From positions 1-32,000 of the forward strand of contig NZ_LWLG01000012.1 in the NCBI RefSeq assembly GCF_001652585.1: a stretch of 32,000 nucleotides of DNA, read 5' to 3'. Below the pieces are notes generated by a model. It was not told the DNA's origin. It was given only the letters and a program-made list of their open reading frames with translations, and did no database searches. The DNA is from Thermosulfurimonas dismutans. GTDB lineage: Bacteria > Desulfobacterota > Thermodesulfobacteria > Thermodesulfobacteriales > Thermodesulfobacteriaceae. Below are positions 15,708 through 30,396 of the stretch, one piece after another. Position numbers and translations under genes: made by a program. Every line of letters begins with the position of its first letter. Position 1 is the stretch's first letter.

Positions 15708-15783
15708 GGGGATGTAGCTCAGTTGGGAGAGCGCCAGAATCGCAATCTGGAGGTCGGGGGTTCGAATCCCCCCATCTCCACCA
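15708..15783 (+). tRNA. tRNA-Ala (anticodon CGC), CCA encoded; integration target
   Basis: GGGGATGTAGCTCAGTTGGGAGAGC... with the G3:U70 alanine identity pair. Anticodon stem CCAGA/TCTGG with loop ATCGCAA; T-arm GGGGGTTCGAATCCCCC; ACCA end. Confidence 0.95.
15737..15783 (+). repeat. attL core (inside the intact tRNA-Ala)
   Basis: GAATCGCAATCTGGAGGTCGGGGGTTCGAATCCCCCCATCTCCACCA is identical base-for-base to 30350-30396. Confidence 0.9.
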
Positions 15784-15831
15784 ATATTTTCAAGGGTTTC
15801 CGAGAAGCTGTCCTCTTCCTAAAATGTTTTA

Positions 15832-15849
15832 GTGTCTATAATCGTGTCT
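15832..15849 (+). repeat. 18-bp att-proximal repeat, left copy (GTGTCTATAATCGTGTCT)
   Basis: It matches 30229-30246 at 17 of 18 positions in the same orientation, and has an internal GTGTCT...GTGTCT direct half-site structure. It lies 49 nt inside attL. Confidence 0.6.
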
Positions 15850-15902
15850 CGCGTTGCATTTCTCCTTAGCTCTTCCCTTTGGTAGAGAGAGATTACATAT
15901 AG

Positions 15903-16077
15903 GCGAAAAAAGCGAAATAAGCCCTTTGATCGCCAGCTATCCCTTGAGTTTCAAGGTTTTCCGGAAATCGGCTTTTTTCGCACCTCTTGCGAAAAAAGTT
16001 TCCCGGATTGCCCGCTTTCCCTAGAGCTAAAAGGCTTTCTGGCTTTTTACTTTTTTCGCATCGGTTTTGCGAAAAAA
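15903..16077. repeat. TTTTTTCGCA decamer array, left arm (one tandem pair on the minus strand plus two inverted pairs)
   Basis: GCGAAAAAAGCGAAA at 15903-15917. Inverted pair TTTTTTCGCA (15973-15982) / TGCGAAAAAA (15988-15997). Inverted pair TTTTTTCGCA (16051-16060) / TGCGAAAAAA (16068-16077). Confidence 0.8.
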
Positions 16078-16151
16078 GTCCCCCTGAGTTAAACAGAACC
16101 GCTGGAAGTCGACATAGAAAAAGGAAAATTCAAATCTTAGACCTTAGCGGT

Positions 16152-16188
16152 AGTGGCGAGGCGGAGCTTAGGCTCCGCCTCTACCACT
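16152..16188 (-). other. Stable GC-rich hairpin immediately 3' of the 21-codon ORF
   Basis: 10-bp perfect stem GAGGCGGAGC (16158-16167) / GCTCCGCCTC (16172-16181) is extended by AGTGG/CCACT across a small internal loop. No adjacent U-tract, so it is not a canonical terminator. Confidence 0.5.
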
Positions 16189-16192
16189 TCGG

Positions 16193-16258
16193 TTAGCGGC
16201 TTTGCCGCATCGCGATGATAAATAAAGTGAACCATAATAAAATTTCAAAAAAATTCAT
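16193..16258 (-). CDS. Candidate 21-aa hydrophobic peptide (MNFFEILLWFTLFIIAMRQSR)
   Basis: Below the ORF-track size cutoff. A perfect AGGAGG lies 6 nt upstream of the ATG (plus-strand CCTCCT at 16265-16270). The peptide has a hydrophobic core and basic tail, and the stop is followed 4 nt later by a strong hairpin. Confidence 0.35.
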   Translation of the reverse strand: MNFFEILLWFTLFIIAMRQSR

Positions 16259-16414
16259 ACTATACCTCCTCTTTTCCGATTTCGAAAAGATTATGTTCGG
16301 AGTCCGAATTATTCGTTTTTTGAAACGAAAAAATTTCAGGCCGCTCGAGTGCACCCTTTCATTAAGAAAAGCGCTCCCATTTCGTTTCTGCCTAATGAAA
16401 AGATCTCTGCCTAA

Positions 16415-16816
16415 GTGGTGAAAATAGTTGACGGAGACATCCTTTGGCTAAGGACCGAGAATCAAAGGTGTTACATAAAAGTTCGGTTGATAGGTATTGA
16501 CACACCAGAAAACCGCTCCAACAAAAGGGCTAAAAAGCAAGCCAGGAACTGGCGCACATCCGTTAATGAAGTGATTAACCTTGGCAAAAAGGCTAAAACC
16601 AGATTTGTCCTTGAATTGGACGTCCAGATTCTTGACCGTTATGGCCGGGTCCTGGGTTATGTATGGCTGCCAAACGGGGAGATGCTAAATGAGAAGCTTA
16701 TCCGCGAAGGATGGGCAGTTGTTTATACCGTCCCGCCCAACGTGAAGTATGTAGATCGGCTTTTGAAGGCTCAAAGACGGGCCCGCCAAGAATCAAAAGG
16801 GTTGTGGGGCTTTTAA
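16415..16816 (+). CDS. Thermonuclease (staphylococcal-nuclease/SNase-like) family protein
   Basis: 133-aa ORF with a GTG start. VDGD...VRLIGIDTPE matches the SNase Ca-binding/catalytic D..D-T-P-E motif. DRYGRVLGYVW...NEKLIREGWA matches the SNase C-terminal core. No signal peptide is evident. Confidence 0.75.
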   Translation: MVKIVDGDILWLRTENQRCYIKVRLIGIDTPENRSNKRAKKQARNWRTSVNEVINLGKKAKTRFVLELDVQILDRYGRVLGYVWLPNGEMLNEKLIREGWAVVYTVPPNVKYVDRLLKAQRRARQESKGLWGF

Positions 16817-16817
16817 C

Positions 16818-16847
16818 AAAAAGCCCGGCACCGAGGAGGCACCGGGC
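16818..16847 (-). terminator. Possible terminator of the minus-strand small-protein operon
   Basis: 6-bp GC stem GCCCGG (16823-16828) / CCGGGC (16842-16847) with a 13-nt loop. A5 at 16818-16822 gives T5 on the minus strand. It begins 8 nt after the stop at 16855. The stem is short and the loop large. Confidence 0.35.
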
Positions 16848-16854
16848 CAGGGTA

Positions 16855-17016
16855 TTAAAACAACCTTTCTAAGACTAGAAAAAGCCCTTTGCCCACCAGG
16901 GTGGCCATGGTTGCTATCCCGAAAAGCTTGAGGTCTTCCCAAAGCTCGGTGGCCCTACCGGAAAAGCCTCTGCAAGGCAAGTTCACTTCGAGAGTCTTTT
17001 TGAAATTACCCCTCAT
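16855..17016 (-). CDS. Hypothetical 53-aa protein with C-terminal hydrophobic helix
   Basis: Internal ATG at 17016 of the 79-aa track ORF, chosen because it starts 23 nt after the upstream gene's stop (17039). MRGNFKKTLE...LFGIATMATLVGKGLFLVLERLF. A G-rich SD-like stretch lies upstream. Confidence 0.35.
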   Translation of the reverse strand: MRGNFKKTLEVNLPCRGFSGRATELWEDLKLFGIATMATLVGKGLFLVLERLF

Positions 17017-17038
17017 GCACGCGCCCCCTCTCCCTGGA

Positions 17039-17428
17039 TTACCGCAAGGGAAGGCTCGGGCTAAGCGTCCGGGCTTCCCGTAGCGCCCTCTCATCCGCTC
17101 CGTAAAGCTCTTGACCGATCACGCCCACGGCGTCCCGGATATACTCAAGCTCAAGCTCGGCATACCGAGAGAGCATAGTGAGAGCATCGGTGAGTTTGGA
17201 AAGGATGTCCCGGACGTTCAAAACGCTTGGGCAAAAGTCCCCTCTCTGGCAAGTCGGGCACTCATGCCGGTGCCTGACCTCGTGGTGGGCCACCAGGTCA
17301 AGGGCCTGAGCTATCCCCTGGAGGGCTTCCGGTAGGGATTCAAGCTCTTGGTAGGCCTCGGAGAGGATATAGTGGGCCTCATCAAGGGTCACTTCATTAA
17401 GCTTGTGGGTTTTGGTATCCTTAGCCAT
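17039..17428 (-). CDS. Hypothetical protein (129 aa, helical, His/Cys-rich centre HHEVRHRHECPTCQRGDFCP)
   Basis: ORF with SD GGAGG (ACGGAGGTGTCTAGCT-ATG). No family recognised. Confidence 0.6.
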   Translation of the reverse strand: MAKDTKTHKLNEVTLDEAHYILSEAYQELESLPEALQGIAQALDLVAHHEVRHRHECPTCQRGDFCPSVLNVRDILSKLTDALTMLSRYAELELEYIRDAVGVIGQELYGADERALREARTLSPSLPLR

Positions 17429-17507
17429 AGCTAGACACCTCCGTGGTGTTTTTCGGTGTGGGGCCAGGGAGGCAAGTTCACTCCCGTGGCCCCGGTGACT
17501 TTACCCC

Positions 17508-17882
17508 CTAGGCCTCCTCGCTTGAGGGGGCCTTTTTCTTTGCCAGCTCTCTAACGGCTTCCTCTTTGGCAAGGATCAGCTCTTCCTGGTGAGACCGCTT
17601 CAAGCTTTCCAGAGTCTTGGAGAGGTTTTCTTTCCGGTCGAAGGCGTATTGGGCCAGCACTTCGAAGAGAGAGCCGAGGCCCATAAGGGCTTGTTCACCC
17701 CAGTCTTTCACGTCCAGGTCCTTAAAGCCCTGGCCCTGAGAGAGGGAGTAAACCAGGCGGGAGAGGTAGGTCAGGGTTTCGAGGGCATGGCCTAGCTCTT
17801 CCACTTTCAGGGCCTCATCGGAAAGATCCATGGCTAGGAGATCAAAGGGGAAGTGCTCTTTCATGTTTACGGCTTGGGTCAT
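17508..17882 (-). CDS. Hypothetical protein (124 aa, predicted helical, Lys/Glu-rich tail)
   Basis: Start moved to the ATG at 17882 (MTQAVNMKEH...), which has GAGGAGG 7 nt upstream. The track start at 17912 overlaps the upstream gene and has no SD. Confidence 0.6.
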   Translation of the reverse strand: MTQAVNMKEHFPFDLLAMDLSDEALKVEELGHALETLTYLSRLVYSLSQGQGFKDLDVKDWGEQALMGLGSLFEVLAQYAFDRKENLSKTLESLKRSHQEELILAKEEAVRELAKKKAPSSEEA

Positions 17883-17899
17883 GGCTACACCTCCTCGGT

Positions 17900-18241
17900 T
17901 TAGTCTTCGCACCCGGCCCCGGAGTTAATGTCCTCCTCGTCTTCCGGGCCGGGGTTATGGGTTTTGGGCCTAAAGCTTTTTTCAAGCTTGTAACGCAGAT
18001 GGCCCAGGTCTTCGGAGATCCACATGGCATGGGTGTGGAGCACGTCCAGGATGGTAGAGAAGGTGTTTTGAACCTGTTTGGAGGCGAAAAGCAGACCCTC
18101 TTTGTCCTCCGGGTCGGCTTCGGCGACTTGTTCGGCCAACCGGGCCACGTCCGAGAGGAAGTCCAGGGCCAGGGAAAGCTCAAGAACCTCCCGGCTCCTG
18201 ATCTCTAGGGTCTTCAAGTGATCCTTAACTGTGCCGATCAT
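17900..18241 (-). CDS. Hypothetical protein (113 aa, helical, acidic C-terminal tail)
   Basis: ORF with AAGGAGG SD 6-7 nt upstream of the ATG at 18241. No family recognised. Confidence 0.6.
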   Translation of the reverse strand: MIGTVKDHLKTLEIRSREVLELSLALDFLSDVARLAEQVAEADPEDKEGLLFASKQVQNTFSTILDVLHTHAMWISEDLGHLRYKLEKSFRPKTHNPGPEDEEDINSGAGCED

Positions 18242-18262
18242 AACGCACCTCCTTGGTTTGGT

Positions 18263-18463
18263 TTATTCCAGGGAGCCAAGCTCCCGGATGTCCCCAATGG
18301 CCTGGTCTGTAATCACGTAGGCTTCACCTTCAGCCACTAACCGACGGGCCGTCTCAAGGGGCATTTGGGCCGTTACCATGATCCCGTTCCGCCAATACTG
18401 GATACGCTCCGCCTTCAACCTCATCGGGTCTCTCTTGGCTTGGCTGATAAGTTCCTTCCTCAT
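18263..18463 (-). CDS. Hypothetical protein (66 aa)
   Basis: Start moved to the ATG at 18463 (MRKELISQ...), which has GGAGGG 7 nt upstream. The track start at 18511 would lie upstream of the predicted promoter. Confidence 0.55.
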   Translation of the reverse strand: MRKELISQAKRDPMRLKAERIQYWRNGIMVTAQMPLETARRLVAEGEAYVITDQAIGDIRELGSLE

Positions 18464-18537
18464 AGGAAATCCCTCCATTTTAGGGGTTTTATCTTTTTTC
18501 GTTGCTTGCAATAAAAAGCTAGCATGTCCTTTTTAGG

Positions 18538-18566: not shown

Positions 18567-18572
18567 AAGTCC

Positions 18573-18764
18573 ATGGCTAGACCAAAAGGAAAACCCAAAA
18601 GACACCTCAATACTCCGATAACCGAAGAGCTTTTGAAGGCTTTTAAGATCCTGGCCGTGGAGCAGAACCGCCGGTTAAACGACCTCCTTGAAGAGGCCAT
18701 GCGGGATCTCCTCCGCAAGTATGGCCGTCCGGTGCCAGAGGAGGGCCAGGGAGAGAAAGCGTGA
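18573..18764 (+). CDS. Ribbon-helix-helix (CopG/Arc-like) DNA-binding protein
   Basis: 63 aa. The basic N-terminus KGKPKRHLNTPITEELLKAFKILAVEQNRRLNDLLEEAMRDLL fits a beta-strand/helix/helix RHH layout. The stop overlaps the next GTG start (GTGA). Confidence 0.65.
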   Translation: MARPKGKPKRHLNTPITEELLKAFKILAVEQNRRLNDLLEEAMRDLLRKYGRPVPEEGQGEKA

Positions 18765-18991
18765 AGTTTACCCCCTACTTCACTAACAAAGTTCTTTCAA
18801 AACGGCCTTATTTGCAGGTAGAATGGATTAAACAAGTTATGGAGGCCCCTATAAAAAGAGAAGTTCAACCGGATGGCCGTATTCGGCTCTGGGGTTACAT
18901 TAAAGAGGCCGATAAATACCTCCGGGTAATTCTGGAGCCGGACGGAGAAACTGTCCACAACGCCTTTTTTGATCGGAGGTTTAAGCCATGA
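18761..18991 (+). CDS. Small conserved protein, DUF4258-like (putative toxin partner of DUF2283)
   Basis: 76 aa. The ...DGRIRLWGYIKEADKYLRVILEPDGETVHNAFFDRRF pattern resembles small proteins commonly paired with DUF2283. Family assignment is from memory, not a search. ATGA overlap with the next gene. Confidence 0.5.
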   Translation: MKFTPYFTNKVLSKRPYLQVEWIKQVMEAPIKREVQPDGRIRLWGYIKEADKYLRVILEPDGETVHNAFFDRRFKP

Positions 18992-19212
18992 AGATCACCT
19001 ACTATCCCGAAGATGATGTGATCTATATTGATCTCCAGGACAAGCCAAGCGTGGAATCCGAGGAGGTCTCCCCCGACATAGTGGTGGATTTTGACGAAGA
19101 AGGTATTCCGGTAGGAATAGAGATTTCCAACGCCAGTCAAAAAGTTCGCTTTCAGGACCTTGAGATCATAAACCTTCCTGTCTCTGGTCTCACACTCAAA
19201 AAGGCCGCTTGA
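18988..19212 (+). CDS. DUF2283 family protein (putative antitoxin-like)
   Basis: 74 aa. MKITYYPEDDVIYIDLQDKPSVESEEV...VVDFDEEGIPVGIEISNAS is the characteristic DUF2283 signature. GGAGG SD at 18975-18979. Confidence 0.8.
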   Translation: MKITYYPEDDVIYIDLQDKPSVESEEVSPDIVVDFDEEGIPVGIEISNASQKVRFQDLEIINLPVSGLTLKKAA

Positions 19213-19252
19213 TTACTCATGAAGACTAGCGGCCTGGGGGAAAGGCAGTCCC

Positions 19253-19441
19253 TTAGTGCTCGGCTAGGTATTTCAGGGCCTCTTGCCATTCAGGGGTGGA
19301 AAGCTCCTCCTCGGTGGCTTCTACCTCTTGAAGTATACGGGACCACTCCTCTTTATCGGCCTCTTCACTTCTGGTCGTAAAGGAGGCCTTAAAATAATAG
19401 GCCATGACCTGGTTTAGCTCTTCCCTGCTTATTGCCTTCAT
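19253..19441 (-). CDS. Hypothetical small acidic protein (start uncertain: 19441 or 19567)
   Basis: The 104-aa track ORF overlaps the upstream HTH gene by 77 nt. The internal ATG at 19441 (MKAISREEL...) removes the overlap but has only a weak SD. Confidence 0.4.
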   Translation of the reverse strand: MKAISREELNQVMAYYFKASFTTRSEEADKEEWSRILQEVEATEEELSTPEWQEALKYLAEH

Positions 19442-19490
19442 AGCCTCATTTTTCCCAAGCCAATGAGGGTCCGTCAAGGCTCCGAGAGTT

Positions 19491-19685
19491 TCAAGAACCG
19501 CTAGGCCCTGGCTCCTCCAGCCACCTCTTAAGCGCTGAAAGCGTAGTAACCGGCTTCTTATATCCACGCTTGGTGGGAAGCAATTTGATTGGCACTCCCC
19601 ATCGCTCCCAGTTATCCTTAAGCGTCCGCTCAGAAACCCTCAGAACCCCGGCTATCTCCTTCCAGCCCATGAGAAGGTCTTCCAT
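19491..19685 (-). CDS. Small helix-turn-helix DNA-binding protein (excisionase/regulator-like)
   Basis: MGWKEIAGVLRVSERTLKDNWERWGVPI is an HTH-like segment. The start is ambiguous (ATG 19685 or 19670; the track TTG at 19757 overlaps the upstream gene). Confidence 0.55.
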   Translation of the reverse strand: MEDLLMGWKEIAGVLRVSERTLKDNWERWGVPIKLLPTKRGYKKPVTTLSALKRWLEEPGPSGS

Positions 19686-19710
19686 GTCCCTGATTTTACC
19701 ACAACTAGGC

Positions 19711-20334
19711 CTATTTTCCGCCCTTTTTGGCTCTCCGGTTCCGAGAAGGGCACTCAAGCTTTACTTTGATCTTGCTCAAAGGACAGTTCGTTTTCTCCAG
19801 AGCCTGCAAAAACTTGAAGTAGGCGGCCTCAAACTCCTCCAGGCTCCACCTCTCATCCATCTTGGGCGTATAGGCCCCTTCCCGGGCATAGGACCGCAAG
19901 ATCTCAAATATTTCCTTCCGTAAGATCTCTCTCACCTGGGGCAGGGTGAGCTTTCGGCCTGCCAATTGTTTGGCTAGCTTAAATTCCAGGGCAATAAGCC
20001 CTTGCCGAAATTCAGCGGCCCTTTGCGCCCACTCAACCTCTACCCGGTCCCGTTCAATCAAATTCCCTTTGGTGGTCTCAAGCTCAAGGCGTTCTTTCTC
20101 TAGCTTGACCTTTTCTCGCTCGGTCCGGATCTTTTCAAGTTCTTCCGGCACCGGTTGGTGAATGTCCTCTAGGTAGTATCGCAAAAGATCCGGTAAGTAG
20201 TAAAACACCCGTCCATTTTTATCTTGCTTTCGAGCCTCGCAAGCCGAAGCCCACCGCCTTAAAGTTCTCTCAGATCGCCCAAAGAGATCTTGAAGGGCCT
20301 GGATCGAAAGGTAAAGCTCGCCGTTCTCGGTCAT
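19711..20334 (-). CDS. Phage Nu1-like small terminase subunit-like / HTH + coiled-coil protein
   Basis: 207 aa with AAAGGAGG SD. The N-terminal HTH (LSIQALQDLFGRSERTLRRWA...VFYYLPDLLRYYL) parallels lambda Nu1 (LADIFGASIRTIQNWQ...). It is followed by KLEKERLELETTKGNLIERDRVE...LAKQLAG, typical of Nu1-type TerS. Assignment made by eye only. Confidence 0.5.
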   Translation of the reverse strand: MTENGELYLSIQALQDLFGRSERTLRRWASACEARKQDKNGRVFYYLPDLLRYYLEDIHQPVPEELEKIRTEREKVKLEKERLELETTKGNLIERDRVEVEWAQRAAEFRQGLIALEFKLAKQLAGRKLTLPQVREILRKEIFEILRSYAREGAYTPKMDERWSLEEFEAAYFKFLQALEKTNCPLSKIKVKLECPSRNRRAKKGGK

Positions 20335-20521
20335 CGCAAACCTCCTTTTGGCCGTTTAGCTACAAGACTTCAAAACCTGTAAGGCTGTCTTCTCAAGGCT
20401 TTTTGGGTCTTCGCCGGGGCTTTTATAGTGTCGGCCACGGCTTCCGGCGAGTTCAAAACGCCTTTTTCGCCGCAGGGGCCGAGACCCTTGCCGCCCGCCC
20501 TCCAGAAGGACCCGCAAGGTT

Positions 20522-21139
20522 TCACGCATGGCCACCCACCGCTCTTTTCTTGTAGCCTACCAGTTTGGCGAGTAGACGATTTTCTTCCTCGGAAAGAAAC
20601 GGGCTCGGGCGGCCAGTTATCCAATGGGCCGCAACGTCTGCGTGAAGCTCCGAAAGCCAGGACTCCATCTCGCACTCCGCAAGGGTATGGCCTAAAAGGT
20701 GGTGACTAAGCTCATGCGCTAAGGCATAGGTCTTCACTTCTGGCCCAAGACCTTCCTTAATCAGGATAAGCCCGGTTTTCTCCCGCTTTGCACACTCGGT
20801 TAGCTTCCAAAAGATCTCGTCTCTCGCTAGATCTTTGTCTATCAGGTCAGGCTCAGGAGCAGGAAGATCGCCCTTCTTGAGATTCTCAATAAGCTTTCTC
20901 CGGACTATCCTTGCAGGATTTATGGTAAGAGCCAGACCATGACAAGCCTTGATAGACACCTCAAGCACCTCAAACCCGCAATTTTTCACTAAGCCCTCAA
21001 CTTCCTCAGGGGGAAGAGGAGCCTTGAAGAGCACGGGAAACTTGTAAAGAAGCGAGCCAAGAAGGGCCAGAAGGTTCTCCCAGGAAGGGTCTCGGAGATA
21101 GCGGTCTCGCATCATTAGGTAGACGGCATTTACGTTCAT
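20522..21139 (-). CDS. HExxH zinc metallopeptidase-like protein, ImmA/IrrE-like (paralog 1)
   Basis: 205 aa with ALAHELSHHLLGH ... SELHADVAAHW. The ATG overlaps the stop of the upstream paralog (ATGA). The N-terminal ~58 aa are homologous to the neighbour. Confidence 0.7.
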   Translation of the reverse strand: MNVNAVYLMMRDRYLRDPSWENLLALLGSLLYKFPVLFKAPLPPEEVEGLVKNCGFEVLEVSIKACHGLALTINPARIVRRKLIENLKKGDLPAPEPDLIDKDLARDEIFWKLTECAKREKTGLILIKEGLGPEVKTYALAHELSHHLLGHTLAECEMESWLSELHADVAAHWITGRPSPFLSEEENRLLAKLVGYKKRAVGGHA

Positions 21140-21771
21140 GGATGCACCTCTTGAGGGTCTTGGCCTTTGAGCACGACCAGGGCTTCTTTGAGGAGCTTTT
21201 CTTCCCCGGTGGTCAAAGCCTCAAGAACCAAATTTGTTTTAGAGTCAAGGCGAGGATGCGGAACACCGGAAACCCACCGGGCAAAAAGATGAGCGTGGAA
21301 CTCTGCAACCCCACGAGGCACGCTCCAGTTTTCAAGGTGTCCCAAAAAGATATGCCCAAGCTCATGGGCCAGGGTCGGAGCATATTCTTCCTCTGGGAGC
21401 TTCTCCCGCATAATGACCACCGGGCCTCCACCTCGCTCAAGGAGCTTCTTGACCCGAGAGAGCATTTCGTCTGAAAGTAAGCCCGGCTCCCTTTCGGTAA
21501 TTAAGGGCTTGTCTCTCCCGGCGATTTCACGGGGAAGATCTTGGGGGTCTCTCACCATGACCGTGAGAACCGTTGTTTGCTCCAAAGGGTAAGGCCAGAT
21601 CTCAATTCCCGCTTCTTGGGCCAGTCGCTCGATCTCCATCGGGCTCAAGGGGGCCTTCTGTAAGAGAGGGTATTTGTGGGCCAGAGCCCCCATGAGGGCC
21701 ATGGCGTTCGCTAGGGTCGGATTGGCTAAATATTGGCGTTTCATAGTGGAGTAGAGAACTTTTGGGTTCAT
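21136..21771 (-). CDS. HExxH zinc metallopeptidase-like protein, ImmA/IrrE-like (paralog 2)
   Basis: Start moved to the ATG at 21771 (MNPKVLYSTMKRQYL...), which has GGAGGAG 4 nt upstream. TLAHELGHIFLGH ... AEFHAHLFARW. Confidence 0.7.
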   Translation of the reverse strand: MNPKVLYSTMKRQYLANPTLANAMALMGALAHKYPLLQKAPLSPMEIERLAQEAGIEIWPYPLEQTTVLTVMVRDPQDLPREIAGRDKPLITEREPGLLSDEMLSRVKKLLERGGGPVVIMREKLPEEEYAPTLAHELGHIFLGHLENWSVPRGVAEFHAHLFARWVSGVPHPRLDSKTNLVLEALTTGEEKLLKEALVVLKGQDPQEVHP

Positions 21772-21814
21772 ATTTCTCCTCCCGCAAGGGCCCGGGGTGC
21801 CCGGGCCCGAAGTT

Positions 21815-22549
21815 TTACTCCGCAGGCTCAAGCCCCAGAGCCTTATCAAGGGCCTTCGTAAGGCGGTCCTCGGCCCACGAAAAGTCTACTCTGACAGTAA
21901 GAAAGCCAAGCTCTTCTCCAAAGATTTCGTCGCCATTTACTTCGGCTGTGCGTGCCTCGAACTGTCCAGGGGCCACTTCTTCAAGGAGTTCTAACTGGAG
22001 GCCAGGTCTAGCAAACGGACGGTGCAGAAGTTCCCCGAAAATCTCTTCGGGTTTCCCGTCCCGTTTGTAGCCTATCTTCTGCATACAAAGCTCCATCTGA
22101 TCGAGCCAATCGAGAGATCGGATAAAGATGGTGTGACTCCGTAGAATTTTCCGTGCAAGCTCCTGGTAGTTCCGTAGTTCCCGTTGGGCCAGGTCCATTA
22201 CTTTGTCTCGCAGGACCAGGTAAATTCCGACTCTGGCCTTCTGCGCCTCCGCTTCCTTTTCGGCTTGCCGCCTCTGAAGTTCTTTCAAGGCGAGTTCGCA
22301 TCCCTGAATCTCAAGACCGTTTTTGTCCATTTGCTTCCGCTTGGCCTCGGCCTCCTTGCGGGCGGTCTCGGGAAGCTCGCCCAGATTGATCTTGGCCAAG
22401 ATTTCACCCGCTTCCTTTTGGAGAGAAGCATTTTCCTCCTGGAGGGCCTGGATCTTCCTTTGAAGCTCCGCTATCTTGACCTGGATCTTCTCAATTTCCT
22501 TGATGGCCTTAAAATACTTGTCCCGAGCTTTTTGGACTTTGTCTCTCAT
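21815..22549 (-). CDS. Hypothetical coiled-coil protein (244 aa)
   Basis: The N-terminal ~110 aa are heptad-rich (KIQVKIAELQRKIQALQEENASLQKEAGE...AEKEAEAQKAR). The C-terminal ~130 aa look globular. SD GCAGGAGGTG upstream. Confidence 0.65.
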   Translation of the reverse strand: MRDKVQKARDKYFKAIKEIEKIQVKIAELQRKIQALQEENASLQKEAGEILAKINLGELPETARKEAEAKRKQMDKNGLEIQGCELALKELQRRQAEKEAEAQKARVGIYLVLRDKVMDLAQRELRNYQELARKILRSHTIFIRSLDWLDQMELCMQKIGYKRDGKPEEIFGELLHRPFARPGLQLELLEEVAPGQFEARTAEVNGDEIFGEELGFLTVRVDFSWAEDRLTKALDKALGLEPAE

Positions 22550-22638
22550 TTTTGCACCTCCTGCAAAGTTTTAGTGTTAAGTCAAACCCCTAACCCGAAA
22601 AGCTCAGCCCGGTGGGGTCCCGGCACTTAGGTTTTGGT

Positions 22639-24342: not shown

Positions 24343-24360
24343 ATCTATTCACCAGGTGAT

Positions 24361-25404
24361 CTAGACCTCCTTGCCAATCTCCTGAAGCAAAGGCCTAATG
24401 GCCTTCAAAAACCGCCTGGCTCTCTCCTTGGCCGCTTCCCTCACCTGTCCACGACCCGAAAGCTCCGAAACTGTCCTCTTGATAAATTCTTGGGGGTTCA
24501 AAACGCTACGGCTTTTGTCTATCTGGATCGGGGCCTTGCTCGCCAAAAAGCCAAGCACCAAGGGCCTAAGCAGACTTTTGAGCTTTTCCGTTAGCTCCCT
24601 GGTTTCCTCGTCTGGGCTCTCCGAAGAGGTTTGCTCCTCACTCAAGGCCTGGGCTATACGGTTAGGCCATTCGGGACGGAGAGGGCTTTGGGTGTAGGCC
24701 GGGCACGGGGCTTTAAGCTTTCGGCACTTCCACTCATAACCGCTGATCCGCTCCTGGGCCTCCACCAGCTCGCCAAGCTTGCACCGGTGGGGATGTTCCA
24801 TACCCTCCGGGCAATCTCCGGCCTTGCGGGGATCATGAACCAGGACCACCTCCTCACCCCGAACCTCATAAATTGGCAAGTTTTGGGCCTCCGGTTCGGC
24901 TTTGAGTAGTTCGGGGAGGCTTACTCCGTGAAGCCACCAGGCCAGGGGGAAGAAGGGCTTGCCCTCGGCTAGAATGGCCGTATGCTCAAACTCGGCCACT
25001 CTCCGGGGAAGCTCCGAAGCGGGCTTTCGAGCTAGGACTTTCTTTAATGATTCATTGTCTCTTTCCGGCCAAGGGCAAGGCTTACCTCCAAACCAAGAGA
25101 TCCCCCGGTAGAACCGGATCGAGGAGGCTCCCTCTCTTGAGGCCTCCTCGGTCTTGCTTCCCCTGGTAAGATGCCGGGAAGATTTCTTCTCTCTGGCTTC
25201 TTCCTTAAGAATGGCTTTCAGGGCTTCCTTGTTTTTACGGAGCTTTTCAAGAAGCTCCTCACTCAAAGGAAAAAGTGAAGACTCGTAGATCAACCGCTCC
25301 CCTTCTACCCGCAATCGAACCCCTAAAAACCGGAGATAGGAAATAAGGGCTTTCGGCTCCTGAAAATCAAATTTCTCCACGGTAAGTGCCCTCGTCTGGG
25401 CCAA
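24361..25404 (-). CDS. Hypothetical protein with N-terminal TubC_N-like docking motif
   Basis: 347 aa. LISYLRFLGVRLRVEGERLIYESSLFPLSEELLEKLRKNKEALKAIL resembles the 'GV.L..EG..L.Y......L..EL...L...K.EL...L' motif seen at TubC N-termini and in phage/plasmid replication proteins. The remainder is unrecognised. Its 5' end overlaps the primase gene's 3' end by 38 nt. Confidence 0.6.
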   Translation of the reverse strand: MAQTRALTVEKFDFQEPKALISYLRFLGVRLRVEGERLIYESSLFPLSEELLEKLRKNKEALKAILKEEAREKKSSRHLTRGSKTEEASREGASSIRFYRGISWFGGKPCPWPERDNESLKKVLARKPASELPRRVAEFEHTAILAEGKPFFPLAWWLHGVSLPELLKAEPEAQNLPIYEVRGEEVVLVHDPRKAGDCPEGMEHPHRCKLGELVEAQERISGYEWKCRKLKAPCPAYTQSPLRPEWPNRIAQALSEEQTSSESPDEETRELTEKLKSLLRPLVLGFLASKAPIQIDKSRSVLNPQEFIKRTVSELSGRGQVREAAKERARRFLKAIRPLLQEIGKEV

Positions 25405-27529
25405 TATATTTGATGATCCTTGCCGGACGCCCGCCGGTTTTATCTTTTTCCTCCCGGATAAGCCCCAGCTCCCCGAGCCGCTGTAAGGCTTTGTTTAAAT
25501 CCTCGCCCTTAACGTGACGCCCAAGCATGTCGTGTATTTCGGAAAGACGAGCCATTTTCTTTTCTTTGAGGAATGTCAAAATCCTAGAAACCACATGCTC
25601 GCCCTTTCTGGGCAATCTCCATATAAGTTCGACGGATTTTTGGCAGTAGCGCCAGATGCTCAATGCGCTCTCCACATGCTGGAGATCGATCACTAAGCTT
25701 CCGTCCAGCGTTGCCAAACACATAGAAAGCCGTAGGACATGAGCCTCGGCTCGATTAGTTGCCTCACCTGCTAATCCTCCCCGTTCTAATGAAAGCTCAG
25801 GATAAACTTCCCGCCAAAAATCCTCGGCTCGCCTGCTAAAACGAAAAGGTTGGGGGGCTTTGTTCCGCAATTCTGAAAATCTAGCCAAAAGCGCCTCTTT
25901 GATCTCTGTTTCCACCTCTTCGGGAATTGGGGGAGGAAATGGAAGGAGTTTGGATCTCCTGACTAGCGCAATAATGAAACGGTTAAGAAAGCCGTTACAG
26001 AGATCAGTAGATCGCACCTTATCCCGAAGGTCTGAAATTGTGGTGTGCCCTAAAGTTACTAGATGAGCTTGATGTATTTCCGTCTTCTTCTTCCGCCCCA
26101 AGGTTTTAAAATGCTCCGAATCCCAAAGACACCTCAAAACACCGGAAAGAAAATTCCCTTTACGGTTAGAGATCTCAAGGAGACTCCCAAATTCTTCAAT
26201 AATTAAAAAAATTCGATTACCTTCTGGGGGAGTTTCTTCTTGGAGTTCAAAAAGATCGCTAGCGGCTTCCCCTGAGAGCAGAAAACCAGACACTTCGGTA
26301 GCTGAAAAATCGGGGAGAGGAAAAAATTCTCTCACGAGTCGTAAAGATGTCCCCTTCCGGCCTTTTCCCGTGGGACCGCAAAGTAAAACAAACAAGCGGG
26401 GAAAATGACGAGTTTTATTGATCGGGAAGTAAAACCTTAGGCCTAATTCACATCCCCAACGAGCCAGAAAAGTCAGAAGCAAGGCCACGGGGGAAGCTTC
26501 GGTGTAATCTGAAACCGCCTTTACAAAGTCCCCAGCCAATCCATAGAAGCAAGTTGGTTCCGGCTCCGGCCATGTCGGAATTAAGAGATTCTGCTCCAAA
26601 AGTTCTATTTCCTTTTGTTTGTGCTGTCTCTCCCGGTCCTCCTTGGTTTTTGCGTGCCATAGCTTGGAGATCGCTTCTTTTAGTTCCGGGAGAGGGACGT
26701 TAAAACCCTGGGCCACAGCCGGAAGAATCACCTTCAAGCGCTCTGGCCGTTTACTAATCCTTCTAAGCAGATCCACCAATGCGTGAATCAGCTCTTGGGG
26801 GGAGGCTAGCTCCCGGTAGAAAGCCCAGACTTCGGAAGCCTTTTCAAGTAGATTACATATTTCCTGTTTGGGATCTGCTACGGAAACTAGGAGATCATCT
26901 ATCCCCTTCTTTCGAGGGTCTTCTCCCCAGTCCAGCACTAAAACGTGCGCCCCGATGAGGGAGAGAAAGCCCGCGAGGGCCAATTCCTCTTGCCTGACCA
27001 TGGCATTTTCCCGGCGGTCCGGAGCATCGAAGGCAAGAAAAACTCTCCTGCCAATAAGGTGAACGCCCTTCCATTCGGGAGCCTTGGCCCACATTGAAAC
27101 CCCGCCGAGGCCGAGGACCGCAAACTCTAACTCTTCGGCATATTGGGCCAAGCAAAGGGCCTTCTTCTCTCCTTCCACAATCACAAGCGGCTTTTTCGGG
27201 CTTTTCAACCATTCAACGGGCTGATTGGGCGGAAAATAAAGGTGCACCGTGTCCCGGACGTGATTGCTGGCGGGGGAGAGATATTTCGCCCCGTTTAATG
27301 GTTCCCGCAATCGAATCCGCCCAAATGGTTCTGTGGCCAGGGGGTAAGGGATCAGGTAAGCCTCGGTCGCTTTCAAGATCGGATTACCGTTATAGCGCTC
27401 AAAGCCCAAGAGCCTTTTCAGATCCTCCGCATCCCGGACCGCCCGGATTCCGGCCTTATGGATCGTCGCCTCGGTGAGACCGGACTTTTTAAGGTCCTCA
27501 AGCGCCCAAGCAGGGAGGTCAAGTGGCAT
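25367..27529 (-). CDS. Primase/helicase-like replication protein (Toprim DUF3854-like N-domain, DUF3987-like P-loop domain, C-terminal winged helix)
   Basis: 720 aa. Toprim-like VIVEGEKKA ... FLAFDAPD ... KGIDDLL. P-loop-like LLCGPTGKGRKGTS with Walker-B-like FLIIEEF. C-terminal wHTH-like LSEIHDMLGRHVKGEDLNKALQRLGELGLIRE. The ATG overlaps the alpA-like stop (TAATG). Confidence 0.8.
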   Translation of the reverse strand: MPLDLPAWALEDLKKSGLTEATIHKAGIRAVRDAEDLKRLLGFERYNGNPILKATEAYLIPYPLATEPFGRIRLREPLNGAKYLSPASNHVRDTVHLYFPPNQPVEWLKSPKKPLVIVEGEKKALCLAQYAEELEFAVLGLGGVSMWAKAPEWKGVHLIGRRVFLAFDAPDRRENAMVRQEELALAGFLSLIGAHVLVLDWGEDPRKKGIDDLLVSVADPKQEICNLLEKASEVWAFYRELASPQELIHALVDLLRRISKRPERLKVILPAVAQGFNVPLPELKEAISKLWHAKTKEDRERQHKQKEIELLEQNLLIPTWPEPEPTCFYGLAGDFVKAVSDYTEASPVALLLTFLARWGCELGLRFYFPINKTRHFPRLFVLLCGPTGKGRKGTSLRLVREFFPLPDFSATEVSGFLLSGEAASDLFELQEETPPEGNRIFLIIEEFGSLLEISNRKGNFLSGVLRCLWDSEHFKTLGRKKKTEIHQAHLVTLGHTTISDLRDKVRSTDLCNGFLNRFIIALVRRSKLLPFPPPIPEEVETEIKEALLARFSELRNKAPQPFRFSRRAEDFWREVYPELSLERGGLAGEATNRAEAHVLRLSMCLATLDGSLVIDLQHVESALSIWRYCQKSVELIWRLPRKGEHVVSRILTFLKEKKMARLSEIHDMLGRHVKGEDLNKALQRLGELGLIREEKDKTGGRPARIIKYIGPDEGTYRGEI

Positions 27530-27744
27530 TAATTGACGCCCTCCTCGACCATTTTGAGGATGGTCTCCCCCCGTAGGAGTCGCCGTTTACCAAGTCGAAC
27601 CGTTGGAATCCGACCAGTCAAAGCCCACAGGCGAAGGGTGGACTCACCCAAACGCAGAACTTTCGCGGCCTCCCGGAAAGTGTAAAGGACATCAGGCTTA
27701 ATCTCGCTTAGAGGGATAGGATCATTAGGGCTAAAACTTTTCAT
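27529..27744 (-). CDS. AlpA/excisionase-family HTH DNA-binding protein
   Basis: 71 aa from the ATG at 27744, with AAGGAGG upstream. LYTFREAAKVLRLGESTLRLWALTGRIPTVRLGKRRLL is the MerR-superfamily/excisionase-type HTH. Confidence 0.75.
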   Translation of the reverse strand: MKSFSPNDPIPLSEIKPDVLYTFREAAKVLRLGESTLRLWALTGRIPTVRLGKRRLLRGETILKMVEEGVN

Positions 27745-27770
27745 GAAATGCACCTCCTTTCTTTATTTGC

Positions 27771-27787
27771 ATGTATTTTAAATACAT
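27771..27787. promoter_or_regulatory. 17-bp perfect palindrome (candidate operator)
   Basis: ATGTATTTTAAATACAT has 8 perfect pairs around a central T. It overlaps the -10/spacer of the predicted minus-strand promoter. Confidence 0.55.
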
Positions 27788-27803
27788 AAGTTCTTTCTGT
27801 CAA
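27775..27803 (-). promoter_or_regulatory. Putative promoter of the alpA-primase-...-helicase operon
   Basis: On the minus strand: TTGACA (27803-27798), 17-bp spacer, TAAAAT (27780-27775). This is near-consensus sigma70 geometry about 25 nt upstream of the SD. Confidence 0.5.
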
Positions 27804-27821
27804 GTCCCTACAAGACCGCTA

Positions 27822-27850
27822 TTGACTTGCAAAAATCCATTGCTTATTAT
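27822..27850 (+). promoter_or_regulatory. Putative promoter of the orf259-int operon
   Basis: TTGACT (27822-27827), 17-bp spacer, TATTAT (27845-27850). The SD GGGAGGGAGG precedes the ATG at 27886. Confidence 0.5.
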
Positions 27851-27885
27851 GACAGTATCGCTATTGAGGTTTTGGGAGGGAGGCC

Positions 27886-28665
27886 ATGCTTACAACCGTG
27901 GAGCAGCTTAAAAAAGATGCTCAAATTTCATGGAGAGCACCTAAACTTTTGAAGTTATCCATAAACTGGTGGGCAAGCCGAAGCGCAAGAAGTGAAAACG
28001 AAGAGGGAGTAGTACTGCTCAAAGAGGCTTTACTAGAAAGGGCTAAACGAGACAATCTGGTTTTTATGTTTTGGAAAGGGGAAGTTTTTGTCCAAGGAAC
28101 CGATATCGTAAATGCCTTTACCAAAAGAATATTGAGGATAACTCTAGAAGAAGCGCCTCCTAAAGACTCGGTAGAAAAGACACGTTTTGAGCTAGTATTA
28201 GCCCACCTAGAAAACGGAGGTTTCATACACTTCAAACTACCTTTTGAAAGGCTCGAAGTTTTTGGGACCTTCCATAACCAAAAAGTTGATCTCTATTCTG
28301 CGGTTCGGGAACTACCTTGGGAAAAGCGAGCTCCAGCGCTTCTTTATTTATCTCTGGATCTTTTAGGAATTGAAGCTTACAAGCTTCCCCCAAATCTTTA
28401 TGAATTCACATCTCCCTATCTTCTAGACATGAATAGCTCCACATGGGGCCTTCCTCTTGAAGGGCCTCCCCCTTATTACGATCCTCGGGCAGTTAAGGCA
28501 GTGGAATTTTCAGGATTCCCTAAATCTATGGAAGAAGTGTTCCAGACTGGTAAACCAGAAGAGCTTATCTTAGACCTTATCCGTAAGGGTAAATTCCAGG
28601 TTGTACCGTCTCGCCCATTAACACCTGAAGAAGAAGCGAGCGTTGATAACGAATTGCCTTTTTAA
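27886..28665 (+). CDS. Hypothetical protein (259 aa) upstream of and co-oriented with int
   Basis: Strong SD and a 12-nt gap to int. The region is visibly more AT-rich than flanking island genes. No motif recognised. Confidence 0.65.
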   Translation: MLTTVEQLKKDAQISWRAPKLLKLSINWWASRSARSENEEGVVLLKEALLERAKRDNLVFMFWKGEVFVQGTDIVNAFTKRILRITLEEAPPKDSVEKTRFELVLAHLENGGFIHFKLPFERLEVFGTFHNQKVDLYSAVRELPWEKRAPALLYLSLDLLGIEAYKLPPNLYEFTSPYLLDMNSSTWGLPLEGPPPYYDPRAVKAVEFSGFPKSMEEVFQTGKPEELILDLIRKGKFQVVPSRPLTPEEEASVDNELPF

Positions 28666-28677
28666 AGGAAAATCTTT

Positions 28678-29796
28678 ATGGCCATCCTTAAAGAATGCCC
28701 CGAATGTCATAAGCGGTGGGCCTTAAAACATAGGAAGTGTCCTAAATGCGGAGTCTCCTTCCGTAACCCCAGATACTACGTCCGGGTCCACGTGGGCAAC
28801 GGGCAATATGAGCTTAAGCCCGCCGGACACTCTTTAAGCGCCGCAAAAGCCCTTGAAGCCGAGATCAAAAAGCTTGTGGCCGAAAGACGTTACACTCCCT
28901 CCAAAGTCCGGGGAACGATGACCTTCTCCGAATTCTGGCGGAAACATTACTGGGACTATAGCGTCAAAGCCTGCCGTAATTCGGAGAGGTGGCTACTCCG
29001 CAAAAGCGAAATTTACGAACATCACCTTAAAAAGGTCTTCGGCAATGTCCGCTTGCGGGACATCACGGTGAAAATGATTGAAGAATACAAAGCCCGGCGG
29101 GTCTCCGAAGGAGCCAAGCCCGGAACCGTGAACTCCGAACTGGCTGTTCTAAAGCATGCCCTGGGTTATGCGGTGAAGATCGAGGAGCTAGAGAGCAATC
29201 CAGCCAAAAAGGTCTCCTTAGTGAGAGCCGAGGAAAGACCGCCCTACTTTCTTTCCGAGGAGGAAATAAAGCGTCTCCTTGAGGCTTGCTCTCCCGGTAT
29301 AAGGCCCATTGTAGCTTTTATGCTTGCCACCGGCCTGCGCCGAGAAAATGCTCTGAAACTTCGGTGGGATCAAGTGAACCTGAAAGAACGCTACCTGAGA
29401 ATTCCTGCCTCGGAATACAAGGCCCGCCGGGAGTTAATCATCCCACTTTCGGACGCCGCCCTCAAAATCCTTAAAGCTCGCCCGAGGCATATATCCTCCC
29501 CTTACGTCTTCTGGCATGGCCCAGAGGGCAAACCATACCGTGGAGATGGCTTTTATGCTTCTTTCAAAAGGGCCGTAAAAAGGGCCGGACTACCCCCGCA
29601 TGTGCGGGTCCATGATCTGCGACACACCTACGCAAGCCTCGCCATCAAAAACGGGGTGAACCCGATTATCCTTCAGCACCTACTCGGCCATCGAACCTAC
29701 CAGATGGTCTTGCGCTACGTCCACCTAGACCAGCAAACCAAGCTCCAAGAAGCCAACAAAATCATTTCCCCGGACCTCCTCGAAGAGGCCCTTTAA
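28678..29796 (+). CDS. int: Tyrosine-type site-specific integrase with N-terminal CxxC...CxxC zinc-ribbon-like motif
   Basis: 372 aa. Catalytic-domain signatures ATGLRRENALKL (Arg), HDLRHTYASLAI (H-x-x-R), LLGHRTYQMVLRYVH (His...Tyr). N-terminus CPECHKRWALKHRKCPKCG. It lies adjacent to attR. Confidence 0.92.
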   Translation: MAILKECPECHKRWALKHRKCPKCGVSFRNPRYYVRVHVGNGQYELKPAGHSLSAAKALEAEIKKLVAERRYTPSKVRGTMTFSEFWRKHYWDYSVKACRNSERWLLRKSEIYEHHLKKVFGNVRLRDITVKMIEEYKARRVSEGAKPGTVNSELAVLKHALGYAVKIEELESNPAKKVSLVRAEERPPYFLSEEEIKRLLEACSPGIRPIVAFMLATGLRRENALKLRWDQVNLKERYLRIPASEYKARRELIIPLSDAALKILKARPRHISSPYVFWHGPEGKPYRGDGFYASFKRAVKRAGLPPHVRVHDLRHTYASLAIKNGVNPIILQHLLGHRTYQMVLRYVHLDQQTKLQEANKIISPDLLEEAL

Positions 29797-29818
29797 GAGG
29801 ATCACTTTACCTACTAAC

Positions 29819-30008
29819 TTTTTTCGCACTTTTTTCGCATCGAGGGTCGATAAGCCCCAAACCATTGGCAAGCAAGGCTTTTACCAGGATTTTGATCAAA
29901 CTTTTTTCGCATTTTTTCGCAAGGGGTAGAGAAAAAAGTTATAGCCCCAATGCCTTGATAGACAAGGCTTTAAGGGAAAGCCGGGGAACTTTTTTCGCTT
30001 TTTTCGCA
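29819..30008 (+). repeat. TTTTTTCGCA decamer array, right arm (three tandem doublets spaced ~83-88 bp)
   Basis: Doublets at 29819-29839, 29902-29921 and 29990-30008, each preceded by AAC/AACT. The inter-doublet spacers share ATA(A)GCCCCAA...CAAGGCTTT. Confidence 0.8.
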
Positions 30009-30228
30009 AGCTTGTAAAAAGTAACTCTTTGAGGAAGGAAAAAAGAGAAAGCTTTCTTCTCTCCCCCTCCAAAAAGGTAAAGGGGAGGAACAGACTCTCT
30101 TCCCTTCCCTTTTGTTAAACAAGGAGGGAGTTATACCTTTCTTCTCCTACCCTATATTCTCGAAAAGTAGATAAAAAAGTAAAGATAATGTAAGCTTTGG
30201 GCTACTTGGGTTCTTCGCTTTTTCTTTG

Positions 30229-30246
30229 GTGTCTATATTCGTGTCT
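30229..30246 (+). repeat. 18-bp att-proximal repeat, right copy (GTGTCTATATTCGTGTCT)
   Basis: 17/18 match to 15832-15849. It lies about 100 nt inside attR. Confidence 0.6.
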
Positions 30247-30349
30247 AACCTCTCCAACCTTAATGTCATCCTTGATCTAAATATTCCCCTTTTCCCCTTA
30301 ATTTTGACCTCAAAAACGCTCATGACGATAATGTTTTGCTATCGTTTAG

Positions 30350-30396
30350 GAATCGCAATCTGGAGGTCGGGGGTTCGAATCCCCCCATCTCCACCA
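30350..30396 (+). repeat. attR core (orphan 3' tRNA-Ala fragment)
   Basis: 47/47 identity to 15737-15783. Upstream sequence diverges immediately (TTTAGG versus GCGCCA), so there is no 5' tRNA half here. Confidence 0.9.

Follow-up and report, generated by a model that had tools for sequence, protein, structure and literature searches.

The 32,000-nt window analyzed here (positions 1 to 32,000 of contig NZ_LWLG01000012.1 of Thermosulfurimonas dismutans) carries a 14.6-kb element inserted at a tRNA-Ala gene. We judge it likely that this element is an integrated, and probably still mobile, phage satellite of T. dismutans that resembles phage-inducible chromosomal islands (PICIs). As read from its sequence, a packaging cassette of ∼1 kb within the element is composed of a 77-nt phage-like element, the gene for a full-length small terminase subunit (TerS) of the Nu1 type, and that for a small helix-turn-helix (HTH) protein. 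An initial annotation of the region had suggested a satellite of P4-like, PICI-like, or capsid-forming PICI (cfPICI)-like architecture. The PICI-like part of that suggestion stands on the gene order, whereas the P4-like part falls for want of sid, psu, and delta, and the cfPICI-like part for want of capsid genes.

Boundaries, Candidate Regulatory Switch, and Replication Genes

ARAGORN places a tRNA-Ala(CGC) gene on the + strand at 15708–15783. Its last 47 nt form the attL core (15737–15783, + strand), and the same 47 bp of the tRNA 3′ part recur with zero mismatches as the attR core (30350–30396, + strand), exactly as the initial annotation had it. The match stretches to 53 nt at 96% identity, and the 14,613 bp between the repeat starts give the element its length. 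This is the geometry of tRNA targeting, in which the integrase is enclosed by an intact tRNA on one side and by a direct repeat of the tRNA 3′ part on the opposite side. The host locus runs DUF72 gene, tRNA-Ala, ACT/MBL-fold gene, the last of these lying on the right flank. A search of IMG/VR did not return the att core.

The 9-mer TTTTTTCGC is found 11 times in the window, compared with 0.68 copies expected by chance, and all 11 copies fall in one of two clusters at most 0.55 kb from the att cores. The five copies at 15903–16077 are in mixed orientation and are candidate arm-type integrase/excisionase sites on the P′ side of attP; the six at 29819–30007 form three tandem pairs on the + strand and are the corresponding candidates for the P side. 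Once the element is excised as a circle, the 47-bp core would lie between the two clusters, a layout like that of the arm-type sites of attP, and we infer from this arrangement that they are its arm-type binding sites.

The tyrosine integrase gene (28678–29796, + strand) adjoins attR and matches Pfam Phage_integrase at 8.6e-32 and phrog_1 at 7e-73. The N-terminus of the protein (28678–28770) has a zinc-ribbon motif of the CxxC...CxxC kind, MAILKECPECHKRWALKHRKCPKCG, which precedes the SAM-like and catalytic domains. In an operon with the integrase gene, and divergent from alpA, is the gene for a 259-aa protein (27886–28665, + strand) that can be characterized by position only: it has zero matches in Pfam, PHROG, NCBIfam, PADLOC, or PDB, and its single-sequence AlphaFold model is unusable (predicted local distance difference test score, pLDDT, 38). 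The gene occupies the slot of the PICI master repressor (Stl), and this position makes its product a repressor candidate.

The region between this gene and alpA (27754–27885) is a candidate regulatory switch. A promoter scan found two sites there against 0.5 expected, placed back to back: one on the − strand at 27803–27775, with 11 of 12 consensus positions, and one on the + strand at 27822–27850, with 10 of 12. A perfect 8-bp inverted repeat at 27771–27787 overlaps the −10 of the alpA promoter.

The alpA gene itself (27529–27753, − strand) encodes an AlpA/excisionase-like protein (Pfam HTH_17, 1.9e-9; phrog_66) and likely starts at the ATG at 27744. Its stop codon overlaps the start codon of the primase gene as TAATG. 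The latter (25367–27529, − strand) encodes a 720-aa replication protein with a Toprim-like DUF3854 domain and a DUF3987-type C-terminal half. Pfam DUF3854 matches at 2.5e-10 and the PHROG “DNA primase” at 6.7e-9, and homologues of the protein carry PF13148 (DUF3987). The closest of them is ∼32% identical, with the C-terminal half alone aligned, and a scan of a genome collection returned no relatives. The initial annotation had named an integrase next to attR, a divergent promoter/operator switch, and an AlpA-like gene coupled to a Toprim/DUF3987-like primase-helicase, and all of these are borne out by the matches, promoter-like sites, and codon overlap given above.

No virion gene (capsid, portal, tail, or large terminase) and no lysis gene was found in the element, with PHROGs read to E ≤ 1e-3 and Pfam to E ≤ 1e-2. 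The initial annotation had reported the same absence and had named structural homology in the unassigned open reading frames (ORFs) as a finding that would speak for a degraded prophage; profile and sequence searches found none.

The Packaging Cassette and Its Relatives

The TerS gene (19711–20334, − strand) encodes a full-length, Nu1-like protein of 207 aa that matches the “terminase small subunit” family phrog_57 at 1.9e-18; no large terminase (TerL) gene is adjacent. A homology search returned 21 relatives, and the genomic context was read for all of those on contigs of useful length (loci are cited here by number). In L001, L003, L005, L008, and L009, the TerS homologues are 46–59% identical to the window protein and lie directly 5′ of a TerL with GpA_ATPase and GpA_nuclease domains, the called TerS and TerL genes overlapping. 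A lambda-type portal gene follows 3′ of TerL, and in the longer phage contigs a protease–capsid fusion and tail genes come after it. The same TerS–TerL adjacency is found in L011, L012, and four IMG/VR contigs (L095–L098); indeed, every phage-type TerS homologue read (40–59% identity) directly precedes a lambda-type TerL. The window TerS aligns with the phage proteins from end to end, basic C-terminal tail included. Among cultured phages in GenBank none carries this TerS, and the TerL relatives from cultured phages are at most 41% identical.

Structural comparison points the same way. A profile of the TerS family matches the PDB entries 6HN7_B (5.6e-4) and 1J9I (1.6e-3), which are lambda-type TerS/Nu1 DNA-binding domains, and matches the PICI protein RppC more weakly (E = 0.017). 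In the alignment-based AlphaFold model (pLDDT 75), residues 8–58 form a strand-helix-helix-hairpin-helix unit and residues 64–124 a helix of ∼60 residues, so that the predicted fold has a winged HTH at its N-terminus and a long helix after it, as expected for the Nu1 type. Foldseek searches with this model gave non-significant matches, the best being to Xis/MerR-like winged HTH proteins (E = 0.12). Judged by homology and gene context, the gene is a true phage terminase subunit by descent. The initial annotation had called it TerS-like and had asked whether it bears any relationship to terminases; the phrog_57 match, the homologues beside TerL, and the PDB profile matches all support that relationship.

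One Nu1-type feature, a TerL directly 3′ of the gene, is missing in the window and in L007, a 6.4-kb metagenome contig; a candidate cos site is present upstream. It is this absence of TerL after TerS that marks the two islands as satellite-like. The ratio of nonsynonymous to synonymous substitution rates (dN/dS) for TerS between them is 0.12, at a dS of ∼1.1. This is purifying selection and argues that the gene has been maintained in a context without TerL.

Two small − strand genes that the initial annotation did not list lie 3′ of TerS. The first (19491–19685) encodes the small HTH protein of 64 aa, which in tblastn searches is 74.5% identical to L009_5833-6009 and 58% identical to L008_604-930. 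The phage copy of this gene has a weak HTH_17 match (4e-4) and is located just upstream of the cos-like element. The second (19253–19441) encodes a 62-aa protein conserved in the island family (62% to L007_2278-2499 and 64.5% to L099 10835–11017). The + strand ORFs 19219–19380 and 19570–19923 are probably spurious, as tblastn places the conserved genes of these stretches on the − strand.

The third part of the cassette is a 77-nt conserved non-coding element upstream of TerS (20437–20513, − strand), with the sequence pattern GCGGGTCCTTCT...GGGTC...CCCCTGCGGCG...GGCGTTTTGAACTCGCCGGAAGCC. It is 90% identical to its counterpart in L009, 84% to that in L008, and 82% to that in L007, with flanks that cannot be aligned; the adjacent TerS proteins of the window and L008/L009 are just 55–58% identical, which is below the identity of the 77-nt block. 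L007 and all phages of the closer TerS clade have the block in the same place, in two sequence variants that track two TerS clades, and in some phages 22–32 nt separate its end from the start codon of TerS. Phages that are more distant within the TerS family, the IMG/VR contigs L095–L098 among them, lack it. A scan of IMG/VR for the cos-like pattern gave zero matches, and a scan of JGI metagenomes gave 49, one of which is genuine (L051), the others being chance matches or unrelated coding sequence.

Phages with a GpA-type terminase put cos directly upstream of terS, and Escherichia coli PICIs copy this layout as cos-rpp (PMC9026076). Because of that placement, we read the 77-nt block as a candidate cos site, at which packaging would be initiated. 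A reading of the block as a structured RNA was rejected, with a consensus fold of −7.7 kcal/mol, essentially zero covariation, and no Rfam match.

The block might instead be a regulatory site of the phage late operon, through which the island would sense phage; a phage activator, perhaps the neighboring small HTH protein, could act there. We regard this as unlikely. It is true that the phage structural operon opens with the gene directly downstream of the element, that the conserved small HTH gene adjoins it in phages, and that there is a precedent in P4 and P2, which share activator-dependent late promoters. However, the element is GC-rich and has no conserved −10/−35 by eye (no promoter scan of the element was made), its end can come as near to the TerS start as the 22–32 nt given above, and cos occupies exactly this position in phages with GpA-type terminases (PMC9026076). 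As a regulatory site would still tie the island to the phage cycle, accepting it would alter a single step of the mechanism and leave the element in the same overall class.

Further information comes from islands reached through a homologue of the C-terminal domain of another element protein, namely L099, L100, and L101. In the window this protein of 347 aa (24361–25404, − strand) has a TubC_N-like N-terminus (Pfam, 1.9e-6), a Cys-rich middle, and a C-terminal domain that is common to L007 and L099. Its family has 8 homologues among 1.84 billion cluster representatives, and no members were found in IMG/VR. The island L099, 9,958 bp long, lies among housekeeping genes with a perfect 51-bp repeat of a tRNA-Arg(ACG) 3′ end on either side (4768–4818 and 14726–14776), and this bracketing indicates that insertion of such elements is that of a discrete unit. 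It encodes an integrase of its own and an 884-aa primase, and arm-type repeats are present near each of its two ends. These repeats, of the GTTACAC/AAGTGTAACC type (5043–5430 and 14447–14524), parallel the TTTTTTCGC clusters of the window.

On L007, the 77-nt block is followed by TerS (76% identical to that of the window), the HTH gene, and a 73-aa gene; further on come a toxin–antitoxin-like pair and a homologue of a 129-aa protein of the window, and TerL is absent. L099 and L101 have 80–90% nucleotide identity to L007, and what they lack is precisely TerS, the HTH gene, and the block's right half. With the cassette present in L007 and missing from its relatives L099 and L101, the packaging unit is a discrete one of ∼1 kb, which some members of the family have and others do not. 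Both TerS-less islands have kept the left half (CGGGTCCTTCT...GGGTCCGTCCCC) of the 77-nt element (L099 ∼10697–10760; L101 ∼3179–3242), and the right half has diverged in both. This pattern suggests a two-part site, in which the left half would be cosN-like and the right half would belong with TerS.

The window element shares with the island family its middle genes, namely those for the C-terminal domain of the 347-aa protein, the 62-aa protein, a ribbon-helix-helix (RHH) protein, and an 82-aa protein (85% identical). Its integrase is 27% identical to that of L099, and the two primases are unrelated. A tRNA-Ile gene with the rare anticodon TAT is carried just inside the tRNA-proximal end of L007 (5889–5965), L099 (14239–14313), and L101 (6721–6795); the window element has no such cargo tRNA-Ile(TAT).

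The combination of a cos-like site, a full-length TerS, and an HTH gene could be a portable cassette, taken from the cos junction of a thermophile phage and able to turn tRNA-integrating replicons into satellites. We offer this tentatively, and would sooner doubt it than defend it. The gene order fits, since cos-TerS-HTH is what remains of a circular HTH-cos-TerS-TerL phage genome once everything from TerL to the gene before HTH is deleted. Under such a scheme there would be two grades of hijacking, one by a cos remnant only (L099 and L101) and one by cos together with a TerS of the island itself (L007 and the window). Were the helpers to be the Aquificota-linked phages that share the element, the cassette could carry DNA between phyla at hydrothermal vents.

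Known Satellites, Candidate Helpers, and Competing Explanations

PICIs are defined by an integrase, a regulator (alpA, merR, or stl), a primase-replicase, TerS, and a facultative capsid-morphogenesis gene, and by the lack of tail, holin, portal, and connector genes; the capsid-morphogenesis gene is absent in PICIs of the Staphylococcus aureus pathogenicity island (SaPI) type (PMC10085698). The gene order of the window element matches theirs (integrase, AlpA/regulator at a divergent promoter, primase-replicase, TerS, and accessory genes), and 14.6 kb is within their size range (PMC10085698). None of the “forbidden” tail, holin, portal, or head-tail connector genes was detected in the element by Pfam, PHROGs, or tblastn. 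With four of the five core functions, here known from sequence alone, the element would be a “Type B” PICI (PMC10085698). It differs in that its proteins resemble those of characterized PICIs in generic domains at most, and in its host, a thermophile from the Thermodesulfobacteria; of the PICIs that have been detected, >99.9% come from Proteobacteria or Firmicutes (PMC10085698).

The closest parallel to the cassette is the cos-rpp arrangement of E. coli PICIs of the EcCICFT073 type, which likewise have a cos-like site directly upstream of a TerS-like winged-HTH gene (PMC6739421, PMC9026076). The helper terminase is of the lambda/GpA type there, and the candidate helpers here have the same type. 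Rpp proteins are 139–154 aa long, lack the TerL-binding C-terminal part of TerS, and form heterodimers with the helper TerS (PMC6739421, PMC9026076). They are thus shorter than the element TerS, which at a full-length, end-to-end alignable 207 aa could replace the helper TerS outright. The extra small HTH gene of phage origin is a further difference.

In classical SaPIs, the island TerS redirects the helper TerL to the island (PMC8569155, PMC6893505). These islands have a TerS of their own, as the element does, but of the pac (headful) type, whereas that of the element is of the Nu1/cos type. SaPIbov5, with a helper-like cos and no TerS, parallels L099 and L101, in which part of the 77-nt element is kept and TerS is absent (PMC8569155, PMC6893505). 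The arrangement of int, a gene in the repressor position, and replication genes around a divergent promoter is common to SaPIs and the element; however, the latter has no homologues of CpmA/B, Ccm, or Ppi, and no sequence relationship to SaPIs.

P4 and the element have in common tRNA integration, int, AlpA, a large primase-helicase, and a helper-type cos (in the element, a candidate). P4 reaches about one third of its helper's size, and both P4 and the element are a small fraction of a typical tailed-phage genome. P4 has no TerS, unlike the element. Membership among P4-like satellites, whose core genes besides int and alpA are psu, delta, sid, epsilon, and alpha, was rejected, with no homologues of psu, delta, sid, or epsilon in Pfam or PHROGs and a primase of another family (DUF3854/DUF3987). 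Membership among cfPICIs was rejected as well: their own capsid, portal, protease, connector, and HNH genes were not detected, and only three unassigned ORFs of the element exceed 240 aa. Finally, PICMIs (phage-inducible chromosomal minimalist islands) are small islands with int, AlpA, and a primase and with no recognized capsid-remodeling genes, as in the element, and they are packaged as concatemers in full-size capsids (PMC10803314). By analogy, the element might also be packaged in this way. In the same account PICMIs are minimal Vibrionaceae islands (PMC10803314), whereas the element is larger, integrated at a tRNA, and equipped with the TerS–cos cassette.

If the element is a PICI-like satellite, the 259-aa protein would keep the alpA–primase operon off until infection by a helper phage or induction, and the helper would relieve the repression at the divergent promoter. 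The integrase and the AlpA-like protein would then excise the element through the 47-bp core, and the primase-helicase would replicate the excised circle. The satellite TerS would bind the right half of the 77-nt element and recruit the lambda-type TerL (GpA family) of the helper. That TerL would cut at the cosN-like left half and package satellite DNA into helper capsids, probably at the helper's expense. The likeliest helpers would be uncultured phages of the L008/L009 type.

What singles out these phages is their relation to the window. Phages with the 77-nt element form two clades, L008/L009 on the one hand and L001, L003, and L005 on the other. Phages of the latter clade are assigned to Aquificota genome bins. 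The tetranucleotide correlation to T. dismutans DNA is r = 0.86–0.87 for L008/L009 and 0.62–0.74 for the Aquificota-linked phages. As they are the closest in TerS, in the cis element, and in tetranucleotide signature, L008/L009 are the best helper candidates, and these comparisons point weakly to phages of their type. Islands that bear the block also co-occur with phages: L007 and phage L003 are from the same metagenome (ERZ23491050), and island L101 and phage L009 share the sample series REYS20-1.

Beyond the cassette, the element has little in common with these phages. TerS is the sole element protein that matches the phage loci L001–L006, L008, and L009. When the called + strand genes of L001, L005, L008, and L009 were compared with the window by tblastn, the small HTH gene was the sole match, and no fragments of TerL, portal, or tail genes of the compared phages were found. 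The related phages have DnaB, DnaG, or UvrD modules, from which the DUF3854/DUF3987 replication module of the element differs.

Several points weigh against a satellite. At least seven ORFs of the element have no family assignment by sequence methods; no capsid-morphogenesis or capsid-size-redirection gene was recognized in Pfam or PHROGs; and the cos assignment comes solely from position and conservation. The backbone of L099 and L101 persists without the cassette, so it may not be that of an obligate satellite. The initial annotation had recommended a search for a helper prophage with a cognate TerL, and two TerL searches revealed none in T. dismutans. A helper prophage with a GpA-type TerL would carry the motif GGGTCCTT...GTTTTGAACTCG. 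A scan of species-representative genomes with two short peptide patterns, a weak test that possibly did not cover the genome of T. dismutans, found no TerL in this species and returned Aquificota, Bacillota, and other hosts. Nor was a T. dismutans TerL present among the best 120 of 3,890 TerL homologues, also a weak test; the nearest named homologue among those 120 is from Balnearium lithotrophicum (57%). The nearest named hosts of phages with this terminase family are Aquificota, a different phylum. Because no helper phage has been identified, helper dependence is something that we infer.

The persistence of the L099 and L101 backbone without TerS, and hence its independence of the cassette, is also an argument for another view of the element, as an integrative self-replicating element (an integrated plasmid or mobilizable island) whose cassette serves mainly to sabotage phage packaging, by decoy or interference, and not to transfer the island. 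The cargo, with its nuclease, toxin–antitoxin-like genes, and superfamily 2 (SF2) helicase with PADLOC helicase matches, looks defence-like, and known satellites block helper packaging through TerS-like proteins (PMC9026076). Yet interference alone would need no phage-like cis element in the DNA of the island, set directly upstream of TerS just as it is in the phages, interference and self-packaging are coupled in known systems, and Pfam scans of the element found no relaxase or coupling protein for conjugation or mobilization. We think it improbable that sabotage is the main function.

A lambda-like prophage that has decayed to int, regulators, TerS, and cos through loss of its structural genes is very improbable: all three parts of the cassette do derive from a phage of the L008/L009 type, and an integrase with a repressor-like layout is typical of prophages too, but the two att repeats are identical and no gene is broken, among the called + strand genes of L001, L005, L008, and L009 only the HTH gene and TerS have left a trace in the window, the replication module is unlike those of the related phages, TerS has been retained without TerL in L007 under the low dN/dS noted above, and the cassette is a clean 1-kb insertion/deletion relative to L099.

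Significance, Cargo Genes, and Host Context

Literature searches found no published satellite in Thermodesulfobacteria or in a comparable hydrothermal-vent bacterium, and the Thermosulfurimonas genome papers do not mention the element. To this extent the initial annotation was right that such elements are uncharacterized in this kind of host. Nearly all catalogued satellites are from Proteobacteria and Firmicutes (PMC10085698). The interest of the element lies in its host lineage, in its well-defined cis site, and in the natural presence and absence of the cassette among its relatives; no new principle is indicated. It offers a testable case, with a cis site at 20437–20513, a cognate TerS, candidate helpers of the L008/L009 type, and relatives with and without the cassette. 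If confirmed, PICI-like molecular piracy would reach into a deep-branching thermophilic lineage, and the packaging module would be seen to be gained or lost as a unit. In practical terms, the element draws attention to a path for horizontal transfer within vent communities and to a possible DNA-delivery tool for thermophiles that are genetically hard to work with.

The cargo that the initial annotation had noted is indeed present and includes a staphylococcal-nuclease-type nuclease, an RHH antitoxin-like protein, a DUF2283 protein, and two M78-like proteins. Near attL, a strong GC-rich hairpin at 16146–16190 (GGTAGTGGCGAGGCGGAGC...GCTCCGCCTCTACCAC) separates the attL-side repeats from the nuclease gene, and a 68-aa ORF at 16215–16421 has a low-complexity look and is probably not a gene. 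The nuclease gene (16415–16816, + strand) matches Pfam SNase at 3e-22 and PADLOC SNc+LTD at 1.6e-20. It is followed by several genes on the − strand. A 129-aa protein (17039–17428) has zero matches to Pfam or PHROG families and is 60–62% identical to its L007 counterpart in tblastn, with a dN/dS of 0.44. Two overlapping ORFs of 134 aa (17508–17912) and 113 aa (17900–18241) have no match in Pfam, PHROG, or PADLOC. The 82-aa protein (18263–18511) is that shared with L099, with 85% identity over 67 aa to L099 11732–11932.

Three genes on the + strand come next. The RHH antitoxin-like gene (18573–18764; Pfam Antitox_RHH, 5e-7) encodes a protein 71% identical to one of L007, where the RHH gene is paired with a Fic gene. 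A 76-aa gene (18761–18991) lies between it and the DUF2283 gene (18988–19212; Pfam DUF2283, 1.4e-18). Together this block (18573–19212) is putative toxin–antitoxin-like cargo.

The 3.8-kb block at 20522–24342, between the 347-aa gene and the cos-like element, has no counterpart in L007 or L099; in both of these, the homologue of the C-terminal domain of the 347-aa protein lies directly 5′ of the cos-like region. The block may be a cargo or defence hotspot. All of its genes are on the − strand. Two M78/HExxH-like proteins, paralogues of each other assigned by Pfam and PHROG, are encoded at 20522–21139 and 21136–21849, and a coiled-coil protein of 244 aa with a weak PADLOC JetC match at 21815–22549. 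The SF2 helicase (22639–24342) has ResIII and Helicase_C domains and a C-terminal extension of ∼190 aa, and matches phrog_16 at 3.8e-97, in agreement with what the initial annotation had called it. In PADLOC runs on the cargo, the helicase matched helicase models alone, in addition to the weak JetC match of the coiled-coil protein, and there was no system-level defence call.

The TerS and the primase of the element are 100% identical to NCBI proteins of T. dismutans. Outside the element, the window carries host genes. The initial annotation had spoken of a sulfate-reducing host, and this needs correction: T. dismutans disproportionates sulfur and cannot respire sulfate (PMC4911364), despite its sat and apr genes. 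The − strand stretch 370–9657 is a dissimilatory sulfur gene cluster with qmo/hdr-like oxidoreductases, to which belong aprA (5223–7223, − strand), aprB (7267–7731, − strand), a DUF6955 gene (7909–8268, − strand), and the ATP sulfurylase gene sat (8299–9657, − strand). A cluster of tRNA-Thr, tRNA-Gly, and tRNA-Tyr genes, also of the host, lies at the start of the window (23–289).

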